Origin: a virus
Lineage: Duplodnaviria; Caudoviricetes
Length of the DNA stretch: 64,000 nt
Reading direction: 5' to 3' (one strand)
IMG/VR virus record: IMGVR_UViG_3300015050_001523
Location: 64,001-128,000 of that record
The notes under the pieces were generated by a model, which saw nothing but the letters and a program-made list of their open reading frames with translations, searched no databases and was not told where the DNA came from. How positions within the stretch are numbered: the first letter of the stretch is position 1; each line of letters starts with the position of its first letter. Shown piece after piece: positions 17,585 to 52,582 of this stretch. The position numbers and the translations under genes are program-made.

Positions 17585-18310
17585 TTATATCTCAATTATA
17601 TGCAACTTTGCTGTTCTTGCACCATTATAAAATTTGGTGGCAATTTCTTTTGCAATTTTTGTTTTATTTCCGCTTTCATGGACATGGCCAAAAAAATGGT
17701 GCTTTATTTTATGTTCTTCCATAAAAAGAAATGATGACAATATTTTAATTCCATAATTTTCATTATTGAAATCTCCACCACAATCAAGAATCTTAAAAGG
17801 TGGAGAATGTGTAATTAAAATATCTGGTTCAAGGACTCCCATTTTTCTGACAATTTCATATAAATCATTTTCTGAGGTTTCATAATTCCATTCTCCTGAA
17901 ATATAATTTATATTTGGAAAACCTGACCACTTAAGTCCAACCAATTCAAAACAATTCAAATTGATTTCAAAAACATTTGGGCATCCAAACTCTATTAATT
18001 CATTTGATAATGAAATAAAGTCATGATTTCCTGATACGCTTATAAATGGTCTTCCATCTAACCAATTTGTAATATGTTCAAGAATATTGTTTCTCTTTAA
18101 CCATTCTTTTTGGAATTCAATTTCATGATCTTTATCAAGAACTCTTTCAATATATCTTGGACCCATTTTTATGATTGGGTCATTAGGAAAGAAATCTCCG
18201 GTATCAACCCAAACATCAAAATTTTTGATCAAATGAATTTTATTATGAACAATTTTCATTAGTTCAGAATGAAGATCTGAAGTATGAAAAATTTTGATGT
18301 TTTTGTTCAT
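17585..18310 (-). CDS. calcineurin-like metallophosphoesterase
   Basis: SDLH, GDFF, GNHD, THSPP, GHVHE. Confidence 0.9.
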   Translation of the reverse strand: MNKNIKIFHTSDLHSELMKIVHNKIHLIKNFDVWVDTGDFFPNDPIIKMGPRYIERVLDKDHEIEFQKEWLKRNNILEHITNWLDGRPFISVSGNHDFISLSNELIEFGCPNVFEINLNCFELVGLKWSGFPNINYISGEWNYETSENDLYEIVRKMGVLEPDILITHSPPFKILDCGGDFNNENYGIKILSSFLFMEEHKIKHHFFGHVHESGNKTKIAKEIATKFYNGARTAKLHIIEI

Positions 18311-49790: not shown

Positions 49791-50480
49791 TTATTCATTT
49801 TCTTTTAAATCGCTTTCAAGCCAAATTGTGGTAACCATGCAGTCTTTTGAAAGCATCATTGGATTACCATCAATATCATGTGCGTGAATTATTCCATCTT
49901 TAATATAACCAGGGCTTGATATCCATGGCTCACGACTTGGACATTCAATTGACCATCTCTTTTCTGGGTCTGAGCTGGAAACTACTACCTCAAGAAGATA
50001 TACCATTCCTAAAAATCCCGAAATAAGTAGAATGAGAATCCCAAATGGAATAATTAGGTCGGACCAGTTATCCAACACGTTCAATAAATGCCTGAATGAA
50101 AATTTCAGTTTTGCACTAACCTTTTCAAATCGAGTTGAAGGGCCAGTAACTGGAGGAATTCGATATGGATTATTCATTTGTTTAATTTCTTTCCAATACT
50201 CTTGTTCTGAAAATTCTTTTCCTTCTATATAAAATAAGGTATATCCATCAAAATATGAGAATGCCGGGCCGTCAAGCTTATGAAGTTCTCCATTTTTATA
50301 CCAAAATTTTGATCCATTTGCAAATTCAACAGCAGGACCATCTTCTCGGTGAAGCTTTCCTTCAACCCACCATTCTTTGGTTCCATTTATCCATTCAACA
50401 ACATGGCCGTTTTCTTGTTTATATGTTTTATTTATCTCAGGAAACATGGCTGCCCATTGCCGCCATCTTGTCAAAAACAA
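49791..50480 (-). CDS. HREDGPA-repeat family protein, copy 14, fused to TM and extra domain (start probably MFPE)
   Basis: HREDGPA/HKLDGPA, EFSEQEYWKEIK, then TM. Confidence 0.75.
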   Translation of the reverse strand: MFLTRWRQWAAMFPEINKTYKQENGHVVEWINGTKEWWVEGKLHREDGPAVEFANGSKFWYKNGELHKLDGPAFSYFDGYTLFYIEGKEFSEQEYWKEIKQMNNPYRIPPVTGPSTRFEKVSAKLKFSFRHLLNVLDNWSDLIIPFGILILLISGFLGMVYLLEVVVSSSDPEKRWSIECPSREPWISSPGYIKDGIIHAHDIDGNPMMLSKDCMVTTIWLESDLKENE

Positions 50481-50494
50481 GGCTTGGATCCAAA

Positions 50495-51021
50495 TCCCTG
50501 ATTATTTCTACATCGTCAAGAAACATTTTAATTTTTTCGCCTGATTTTTTGTTTTGTGCTCAACTTATTCAGACTTCACGGCAATGTTTCGAAATGAATA
50601 AATTTAATTCTCGCGTTCCAATTGGCTCAAGGTTATTTTGAGTTATAAACTTTTGAACTCGAACCCAAACATTTGCATAAGGTAGAAGCGCGAATCCATT
50701 ATGGAAAGCTTTCATTGTTGAAATGATGACAAATTCTTCATTTTTAATTTGAAGCTCAAGAACAGGAGACGCTGATGCTCCAAGCTTTTTATAAATTTCA
50801 GGCTCTAGAAAAAAGAAAATATTGTGATAAATTTCTTGGCGAGAACTTCGTGAATCTAAACGAACTTCATCATATTCACAAAGAGCGCTAAAATCAAAGG
50901 TTGAAACAGTAAATTTATTTTTCATGATTGTATAGCCTTTATGGACAACAGTCTGGATTCATACAGTGTGCGTCCCTGATTATTTCTACATCGTCAAGAA
51001 ACATTTTAATTTTTTCGCCTG
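50495..51021. repeat. 49-bp perfect direct repeat (50495-50543 and 50973-51021)
   Basis: TCCCTGATTATTTCTACATCGTCAAGAAACATTTTAATTTTTTCGCCTG occurs twice. Confidence 0.92.
50569..50925 (-). CDS. hypothetical protein between the 49-bp repeats
   Basis: Tiling ORF. Confidence 0.65.
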   Translation of the reverse strand: MKNKFTVSTFDFSALCEYDEVRLDSRSSRQEIYHNIFFFLEPEIYKKLGASASPVLELQIKNEEFVIISTMKAFHNGFALLPYANVWVRVQKFITQNNLEPIGTRELNLFISKHCREV

Positions 51022-51160
51022 GACACCAATCACTTTCATAAAGCAACCCCATCAAAATTAGTTCGACAAACTCCAAATCTAAGTTAGCCGGAACATTGAT
51101 TGTATACTCATGTTCATTGGCATTATAAAAATAAATGACTTTTGCAATTTTGGTTTCCAT
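50939..51160 (-). CDS. hypothetical protein
   Basis: Contains one repeat copy. Confidence 0.6.
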   Translation of the reverse strand: METKIAKVIYFYNANEHEYTINVPANLDLEFVELILMGLLYESDWCPGEKIKMFLDDVEIIRDAHCMNPDCCP

Positions 51161-51206
51161 TTTTATTTCCTTTTTTTGAAATAATTTATTTGATGTTAAA
51201 AATTTT

Positions 51207-51280
51207 TGCGTCCGATAGGAATTGAACCTATAACCTATGGCTTAGAAGGCCATTGCTCTATCCTGTTGAGCTACGAACGC
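51207..51280 (-). tRNA. tRNA-Arg(UCU)
   Basis: ATGGC-CTTCTAA-GCCAT, canonical cloverleaf. Confidence 0.92.
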
Positions 51281-51284
51281 ATAT

Positions 51285-51378
51285 TTAAGTGATAACTGAA
51301 AATATGAAAAGCGAAAAACCAAGAACAAGAAACGCAAGTGAAACCATTTTCACAAGAGTTTATTCAGTTATCACTTAA
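51285..51378 (-). ncRNA. stem-closed U-rich RNA element E2
   Basis: 16-bp terminal inverted repeat, GTGAAA-ATGG-TTTCAC hairpin, U-rich tract; fills the gap between two tRNAs. Confidence 0.6.
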
Positions 51379-51451
51379 TGCACCTAGATGGACTTGAACC
51401 ATCAACTTCCATTTTATAAGAATGGCACTCTAACCATTGAGTTATAGGTGC
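51379..51451 (-). tRNA. tRNA-Ile(UAU), second copy
   Basis: CCATT-CTTATAA-AATGG. Confidence 0.9.
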
Positions 51452-51678
51452 AGAAAAAATCTAGCCCGACCCCTGTTTACCATTACATTTCAATGGACCA
51501 AACCATTTGGTATGGGTAGAGTATCGAGATAGAAATAAGCCTCCCAGATTCCGTGGACCAACAATATCTTGCTCAAGGATATTGATTTATTTAATCGACG
51601 AGTCTGCCCCAAACATTTTCAATCAAAAACCAATTCGAAAACCCTTGGGGATTTTGGCTGCCAAGCTTCCCTGGCATC
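51452..51678 (-). ncRNA. 227-nt structured leader / candidate ncRNA
   Basis: Lies between promoter TTGACC-16-TATCCT (51685-51712) and tRNA-Ile; several hairpins. Confidence 0.45.
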
Positions 51679-51780
51679 TCTTGAAGGATAGCATCTTCTG
51701 GCGAAGGGTCAAGGCTATCTTTCATCCTTTTTTTGGGCTGTTCTATCTAAACAATAAATGCAAATCTTATATCATAAGAT

Positions 51781-52221
51781 ATGGGTTATATAGATATTGA
51801 TTATAGATCATTAAAAATATTAGAAGAAGATATAAAATGTATTTTGAAATCTCCAATGGTTTATTCTGAAAACATTTATTCATTCGAAGTCATGTTAGAT
51901 TTATTTTTAAAAAGTTATTTAAAAATAAAAGGATATGATGAGGATTATAGAAAAAAAATTCTCAAAAAATCTAGAGAAAAAATACATAAAAAATACTCAT
52001 TTAAATACCCGGCAGGTGGTGTACTGAAATATTATCTTTATTGCAGTATGCCTAAAAAATATTTAACACCTTACTGGGATGACATTAAATGGGAAATGCT
52101 GCAAGAAATATTTGATATATATGATGAGTTTGTAAGAGAAGTTTTAGAATATCCTCTTCCAATTAAAACAATTTTTGAAAAAATATTGTCAGAAAATCAC
52201 TATAACCCATATTATGATTAA
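51781..52221 (+). CDS. hypothetical protein
   Basis: Isolated plus-strand ORF followed by a hairpin. Confidence 0.6.
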   Translation: MGYIDIDYRSLKILEEDIKCILKSPMVYSENIYSFEVMLDLFLKSYLKIKGYDEDYRKKILKKSREKIHKKYSFKYPAGGVLKYYLYCSMPKKYLTPYWDDIKWEMLQEIFDIYDEFVREVLEYPLPIKTIFEKILSENHYNPYYD

Positions 52222-52282
52222 TTTCAAATTTATTGGCCCATCCTTTGCATGGGCACTTATTGTTAATTAATAACCATATTAA

Positions 52283-52312
52283 AAAAAGAAATACAATATT
52301 GTATTTCTTTTT
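52283..52312 (-). terminator. intrinsic terminator-like hairpin
   Basis: AAAAAGAAATACAA/TTGTATTTCTTTTT at a convergent junction. Confidence 0.6.
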
Positions 52313-52321
52313 GAAAATTGC

Positions 52322-52582
52322 TTAGTCTACGTCACAATCTCTTGTAATTGCATTAAGCAAATCTTGCACATCACTTAATTCATTAATTTGGCCAGATTCT
52401 TCTCCTCCGTAGCGATAAGCAATGCGCCATGCCCAACCCTCATTTTCGCAGTCCTGGTTATTCCCAGAAAACTCGGGCATGAGGAACATGCTCTTCACTA
52501 ATAATAAGACAAGTGCCGCTATCATAACGCCAATTAATATCATTAGTAGATAATTCAGCGGCAATAAGATTAAGATCATCAA
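52322..52582 (-). CDS. membrane-anchored hypothetical protein
   Basis: Hydrophobic N-terminus; start uncertain. Confidence 0.45.
   Translation of the reverse strand: MMILILLPLNYLLMILIGVMIAALVLLLVKSMFLMPEFSGNNQDCENEGWAWRIAYRYGGEESGQINELSDVQDLLNAITRDCDVD

Follow-up and report, generated by a model that had tools for sequence, protein, structure and literature searches.

The tRNA-Ile/tRNA-Arg junction

The element considered here, E2, lies between two tRNA genes of a large tailed phage represented by a 322,518-bp IMG/VR virus record, of which bases 64001-128000 make up the window, the 64,000-nt stretch of DNA that was analysed and in whose coordinates positions are given. The record is 93% complete by CheckV, has a G+C content of ~33% genome-wide and carries a gp23-type capsid gene and 37 tRNA genes. 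All of the tRNAs and nearly all of the genes in the arm of the genome around E2 occupy the minus strand, and E2 lies on the same strand as every neighbouring gene and tRNA. Read on that strand, the order is tRNA-Ile(UAU), E2, the linker ATAT and tRNA-Arg(UCU) (Table 1). The genes around the junction are ORFans, and the surroundings form a cassette-rich accessory arm.

Table 1. Features of the E2 locus and of the second copy, E1, in window coordinates
Feature	Position	Strand	Remarks
Sigma-70-like promoter candidate	51685..51712	(-)	TTGACC-16-TATCCT with TG; consensus match only
tRNA-Ile(UAU)	51379..51451	(-)	directly 5′ of E2; CCA not encoded; Rfam and ARAGORN
E2	51285..51378	(-)	94 bases
E2 closing stem, 5′ arm TTAAGTGATAACTGAA	51363..51378	(-)	first base follows tRNA-Ile discriminator
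E2 conserved core CTTGTGAAAATGGTTTCAC	51338..51356	(-)	holds 6-bp hairpin GTGAAA/TTTCAC with AUGG loop
E2 U-rich interior	51304..51337	(-)	mostly single-stranded; UUUC motifs; ends in tract TTTTTCGCTTTTCAT
E2 conserved tract TTTTTCGCTTTTCAT	51304..51318	(-)	
E2 closing stem, 3′ arm TTCAGTTATCACTTAA	51285..51300	(-)	inverted-repeat partner of 5′ arm
Linker AUAU (ATAT)	51281..51284	(-)	4 nt, from stem to tRNA-Arg +1
tRNA-Arg(UCU)	51207..51280	(-)	directly 3′ of E2; then ORF 50939-51160 without terminator between
E1, sole other copy	35001..35085	(-)	core CTTGTGAAATGGTTTTCA at 35048-35065; 3 nt upstream of tRNA-Glu(UUC)

The coordinates of the flanking tRNAs are those given by Rfam, and ARAGORN calls the same genes to within 1 nt. 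According to the first-pass annotation, E2 begins directly after the discriminator base of tRNA-Ile and fills the gap between the two tRNAs, and its coordinates and sequences were confirmed. The last base of the tRNA-Ile acceptor strand is 51380, and 51379 is the discriminator A, so that E2 starts directly after it (0 nt), and it ends 4 nt short of the +1 position of tRNA-Arg. None of the 37 tRNA genes of the phage encodes CCA, and their 3′ ends must therefore be cut or trimmed back to the discriminator before CCA is added. Since no gene for a CCA-adding enzyme (PF01743) was found in the phage genome either, the phage tRNAs must rely on the host for 3′ processing and CCA addition.

The promoter candidate, as judged from its sequence, would begin a transcript ~225 nt upstream of tRNA-Ile. 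Terminator-like sites were not found on the minus strand at 50500-52500 or at 34500-36000, the latter interval containing E1, and with no terminator ahead of the next ORF at 51160, the RNA block would occupy the 5′ portion of a transcript that also carries an mRNA. Both the operon of E1 and that of E2 are headed by a tRNA-Ile(UAU), and these paralogues match in 61 of 77 alignment columns (~80%). The proteins encoded downstream of E1 and of E2 show no homology to one another and belong to no Pfam family. An ORF immediately upstream of the E1 tRNA operon (35791-36675, minus strand) encodes 294 aa, also of no Pfam family; relatives 29-38% identical to it are encoded by at least 26 further contigs of large phages, and some two-thirds of the loci with such relatives also carry tRNA genes. 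This protein may be a tRNA-related enzyme.

Fold of E2 and its kinship with E1

The 16-bp closing stem, the core and the U-rich tract that had been reported for E2 were all recovered on the minus strand. The two arms, of 16 nt each, are 100% complementary and are spaced 62 nt apart. The folding energy of E2 is −25.3 kcal/mol vs. −11.1 ± 2.7 kcal/mol for dinucleotide shuffles (z = −5.25; 0/200), and the pair probability of the stem is ~1.0 when E2 is co-folded with both flanking tRNAs; the core hairpin with the AUGG loop has a pair probability of ~0.5 in E2. E1 is closed by a perfect stem of 15 bp (35001-35015/35071-35085) around an interior of 55 nt, its fold has a z of −5.63 against shuffles, and its U-rich strand is predicted to be >90% unpaired. 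Perfect inverted repeats with arms of at least 15 nt and spacers of 20-120 nt arose in two of 10 Markov-simulated genomes, one in each. UUUC motifs number five in E1 and four in E2, against 0.55-0.62 expected. The two stems together comprise 31 bp, all of them Watson-Crick and none G-U; such stems would fold equally well on the opposite strand or as DNA.

Some further sequences in the genome recall parts of this arrangement. A perfect inverted repeat at 18211-18302, with 16-bp pairing across a spacer of 60 nt, has the geometry of E2 and no E-like core, and it falls within the first 100 nt of a protein-coding ORF (17585-18310). Outside the window, the spacer between a tRNA-Trp and a tRNA-Thr (G000:C1:177377-177451) holds a U-rich hairpin with a 7-bp closure and contains TTGTTCTTAG, which resembles TTGTTCTTGG of E2, possibly by chance. 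An apparent AAA-TGG-TTT echo in the upstream leader was set aside, the 9-mer not being enriched (19 occurrences in the genome vs. 8-21 in simulated ones).

That E2 is a second copy of E1, as had been proposed, is well borne out. A covariance model built from E2 only, consisting of the outer stem and the small hairpin, retrieved E1 with E-values of 1.5e-6 (search of the window) and 7e-6 (search of the genome). The next match in the genome was at E = 5, from which we conclude that exactly two copies are present in the 322,518 bp. The model also gives a match on the plus strand, to which only the stem contributes. Local alignment of the two interiors gave a score of 42 vs. 15.3 ± 2.9 for shuffled sequences (0/2000), with five indels of 1, 1, 3, 1, and 1 nt and with the common blocks CTTGTGAAA(A)TGGTTT and GTTTTTCG(C/T)TTTTCAT. 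Conservation of the interiors is about that of the tRNA-Ile paralogues (about 80%). E1 and E2 are thus one family.

MAFFT was unable to align E1 and E2 in structural register, and the structural alignment was therefore taken from the covariance model. With the register set by the model, the two stems agree at about half of their positions, and seven outer pairs have changed on both sides and still pair. The earlier statement that the stem sequence of E2 is unrelated to that of E1 was thus an overstatement, and the stems are better described as diverged and compensated. All cells of the stem helix (100%) are paired in the model-fitted alignment, and sliding the 3′ partners by 1-3 columns in either direction lowers pairing over the whole structure from 97.7% to 24-55%. 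Retention of stem pairing through seven double changes, as seen in two sequences and an alignment fitted to the structure, is suggestive of a selected structure and argues against a neutral spacer. Conservation of the interior at the level of a tRNA, together with a stem whose sequence has drifted, points to a sequence constraint on the loop and a pairing constraint on the stem.

Homologues were found neither in 73 records of related or similar jumbo phages nor in three public sequence collections nor in Rfam, and all of the evolutionary support therefore comes from two paralogues and a structure-fitted alignment. Exact-pattern scans of viral, metagenome, and genome contigs yielded chance matches only, none of them stem-closed and none near a tRNA, and one bacterial hairpin and one CRISPR spacer were judged to be coincidences. 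The best matches of the covariance model R2 were noise, with none near a tRNA, in 49 records reached by way of the capsid protein or of a neighbouring 229-aa protein, and the model gave nothing credible in 27 loci and 24 whole jumbo-phage records that encode the 294-aa tRNA-neighbour protein. BLAST searches with the tRNA-E2-tRNA block gave no match in relatives, and blastn with E2 gave nothing significant in phage and plasmid records. In one E. coli phage, a match to the tRNA-Arg seemed to extend into E2, but the extension overlies a protein-coding gene and was rejected. Rfam searches at E up to 5 returned only chance matches to microRNA precursors. The closest relatives by capsid protein, 87 and 79% identical, are fragmentary and do not include the E2 region. 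A listing of sequencing runs showed none of RNA with the E2 stretch; the single run that contains part of the region is a small DNA run, with a 157-nt contig over 51195-51351 that is identical to the record and shows no variation. The two-copy family is thus known from this genome only, and it may be specific to the present phage lineage.

One record, IMGVR_UViG_3300033049_000066 (293 kb), was considered as a relative and rejected, as it matches through MORN-like repeats only. The 229-aa ORF near E2 (49791-50480, minus strand) is built of such repeats and matches dozens of repeat copies across that record, and a repeat-only match of this kind provides no evidence of synteny. The tRNA cluster of the record has no E element and contains other stem-closed spacers. 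At 143243-143937, the spacer between a tRNA-Asp and a tRNA-Gly holds two copies of a module closed by an AT-rich stem. The 18-bp stem of the first copy is perfect and that of the second nearly so, and a 3-nt loop in one copy contrasts with an insert of ~30 nt in the other. From these modules it appears that stem-closed inserts in tRNA spacers are common in such phages. The Pro-Gln spacer of the same record opens with six tandem AAAGTGTACTT units. ARAGORN also reported suppressor-type tRNAs, with the anticodon CUA in several jumbo-phage loci and with UUA at 114659-114732 of IMGVR_UViG_3300033049_000066, a hint that stop codons may be reassigned or suppressed in these jumbo phages.

A possible small-RNA module and competing explanations

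Several known kinds of element can be set aside. E2 is not a tRNA (RF00005), having no cloverleaf or anticodon arm, and ARAGORN and Rfam call the flanking tRNAs only. It is not a Y RNA or YrlA (RF02553, with its Ro60-binding helix), to which Rfam gave no match at E up to 5; the AGGATG...GCCTA stems that are repeated in the main tRNA cluster of the phage differ from the E stems. An intrinsic terminator is excluded by the lack of a G+C-rich hairpin with a direct U run in the E1 and E2 regions. A mimic of CRISPR repeats was rejected because the core is absent from any multi-copy locus, and a role of the stem arms as guides was rejected because complementary sites were not found.

We propose that E2 could be a self-contained small-RNA module that is set in an otherwise normal 4-nt tRNA spacer and acts in trans, a reading to which we give about an even chance. 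Most other tRNA-tRNA spacers of the phage are 4-12 nt long and unstructured, and a clamp is therefore not required merely to separate tRNAs. Likewise, the Ile-Arg spacer without E2 would be a normal 4 nt, which marks E2 as an insert with its own fold rather than a necessity of processing. Transcription would yield a minus-strand precursor consisting of the leader, tRNA-Ile, E2, tRNA-Arg, and mRNA. The exact abutment of E2 to the tRNA ends suggests that it would be freed by the tRNA-maturing nucleases of the host. RNase Z cuts CCA-less precursors at the discriminator, and RNase P cuts at position +1. The 5′ end of E2, at 51378, would result from an RNase Z-type cut after the discriminator of the CCA-less tRNA-Ile, and the 3′ end, at 51281, from the RNase P cut at +1 of tRNA-Arg, which would leave the 4-nt linker as an overhang.

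By the general rules of RNA decay, the predicted product of ~98 nt, in which the 5′ end is base-paired and only 4 nt extend beyond the 16-bp helix at the 3′ end, would be stable, in that the clamp geometry should protect it from 5′-end-dependent RNase E and from 3′ exonucleases. U-rich sequence is a preferred cleavage target of RNase E, so the E2 RNA could also be short-lived. Action is the weakest step of the scheme. The clamp would expose the AUGG-loop hairpin and a U-rich strand of 35-45 nt with four to five UUUC motifs, and this conserved strand would be the working part, serving as a binding platform in trans, a sponge or a decoy. Its partner might be an RNA-binding factor of the host or the phage or a purine-rich RNA; searches of the phage genome for partners found neither genes for RegA, RNase III or Hfq nor convincing complementary sites for the E RNA.

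A different explanation, which we regard as unlikely, is that E2 exists only for the maturation of the flanking tRNAs, as a processing stalk or folding insulator. The duplex would then be a double-strand-specific cleavage site for host RNase III or a means of holding the two tRNA ends together, and the interior would be discarded. A perfect, G-U-free duplex that is formed by the sequences flanking a dispensable loop and directly adjoins the tRNA ends is what such a stalk would look like. However, the 4-12 unstructured nt that separate most adjacent tRNAs show that no stalk is needed, and the interior is conserved like a tRNA while the stem drifts, which is unexpected for a loop to be thrown away. 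Typical substrates of RNase III extend over about two helical turns. The stem of 16 bp is shorter, and RNase III is not encoded by the phage.

Since every pair of the stems is Watson-Crick whichever strand is read, and the covariance model matches the plus strand via the stem, E2 might instead be significant as DNA. It would then be a palindrome-bounded module (a cassette, a recombination module or a palindrome kept by template switching) with a functionless RNA, an idea that we consider distinctly improbable. The setting is favourable to it in several respects: removal of E2 restores the normal 4-nt spacer, the tRNA-Ile/tRNA-Arg junction of phage T4 houses a mobile homing-endonuclease gene (segB), and the surroundings of E2 are a cassette-rich accessory arm of ORFans. 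Template-switch correction of quasi-palindromes is known from T4 genetics, and it could keep the arms perfect without selection on the RNA. However, the terminal repeats differ between the copies and the interior is what they have in common, which is the reverse of a transposon or MITE. Moreover, the arms have no further occurrence in the genome and no target-site duplication flanks E2, and for these reasons we rejected a MITE or IS-type element. Only two copies exist in 322 kb, and both are in tRNA operons at processing sites.

A bolder form of the small-RNA proposal would make E1 and E2 a new class of phage RNA, a clamp-stabilised decoy, cut from tRNA precursors by the tRNA nucleases of the host, whose UUUC-repeat loop titrates a host RNA-binding factor such as Hfq, RNase E or Rho, or during takeover pairs with the beginning of an mRNA for host defence, and we give it little chance of being correct. 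The pairing partner envisaged there is suggested by the complement of the conserved tract, ATGAAAARCGAAAAAC (AUGAAAARCGAAAAAC), which resembles the start of a gene, so that the E RNAs could block mRNAs that begin in this way. We think it very unlikely, in turn, that E2 is simply a trans-acting antisense RNA that blocks translation of a host or plasmid mRNA, such as that of a defence gene. In both copies the complement of the tract reads ATG and then Lys/Glu-type codons, but the frame closes after seven codons in E1, a target in the phage genome was not found, and plasmid and phage collections gave no significant match.

Least probable of all, to the point that we give it hardly any weight, is that E2 encodes a tiny hydrophobic peptide from the 20-codon frame at 51285-51347 (minus strand), for although the conserved AUG opens a frame in both copies (24 codons at 34983-35057 in E1), both products are hydrophobic, and structured mRNAs with paired ends are known from type I toxins, the frame has no Shine-Dalgarno sequence where neighbouring genes carry AGGA-type sites, its AUG lies in the hairpin loop, the E1 frame continues through the stem into tRNA-Glu, a U-rich strand gives a hydrophobic product in any frame, and the indels of the interior cause the conserved tract to be read in different frames in the two copies. 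A small-protein gene of the type I toxin kind was therefore rejected for want of a Shine-Dalgarno sequence and of a frame conserved between the copies; the plus-strand frames, of 24 and 7 codons, are not conserved either.

Comparison of E2 with known RNAs of tRNA operons

The tRNA region of T4 yields the small RNAs RNAC and RNAD, whose roles are unknown (PMC3014915; PMC9697503). As a putative small non-coding RNA, E2 is like rnaC and rnaD in lying only a few bases from tRNA genes, inside a tRNA operon of a T4-type phage, but it is shorter than either (rnaC, species 1, has 139 nt and rnaD, species 2, has 119 nt) and bears no homology to them, as R2 scored no higher than 11.2 bits (E = 0.44) when run on the tRNA region of T4. 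They also differ in structure. T4 rnaC carries a tRNA-type T-arm, whereas E2 is without a T-arm and, unlike rnaC and rnaD, consists simply of a clamp that encloses a U-rich loop. In T4 (69800-73200), tRNA-Ile is followed by tRNA-Arg as it is here, but with segB between them and with rnaD and rnaC after tRNA-Arg, whereas E2 is placed between the Ile and Arg tRNAs. On this comparison, the Ile-Arg junction seems to tolerate inserts.

[quoted passage not shown] It provides a working model for the proposed release of E2 and its action as a sponge in trans. The two nevertheless show no sequence similarity, and 3′ETS-leuZ is a 3′ external spacer with a terminator end and depends on Hfq, whereas E2 lies in an internal spacer and has a clamp on both of its ends. 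The leader-trailer helices of rRNA and the intervening sequences of 23S rRNA are RNase III stalks that are excised from stable-RNA precursors. As in those stalks, the duplex of E2 is made by the two flanks of a segment that would be cut from a precursor, but rRNA and 23S stalks are longer and either enclose a functional rRNA or are discarded, while it is the enclosed sequence that is conserved in E2. E2 thus resembles the RNAs of phage tRNA operons and those of bacterial tRNA spacers, and by sequence or structure it is a member of neither.

Extra small RNAs without an explanation have been known from phage tRNA operons for 50 years. E2, which most probably belongs to a small RNA present in two copies and has its ends locked by a perfect 16-bp stem, adds another to them and is no new kind of system. 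Taken alone, as two copies in one uncultured genome, it changes little. In T4-type phages, no trans-acting RNA has been characterised so far (PMC3014915). E1 and E2 offer a simple and compact example of such operon RNAs with clear predicted ends, and their conserved single-stranded loop suggests a working surface. E2 also indicates that a junction between two tRNAs can take a self-folding insert without disturbance to the processing sites on either side.
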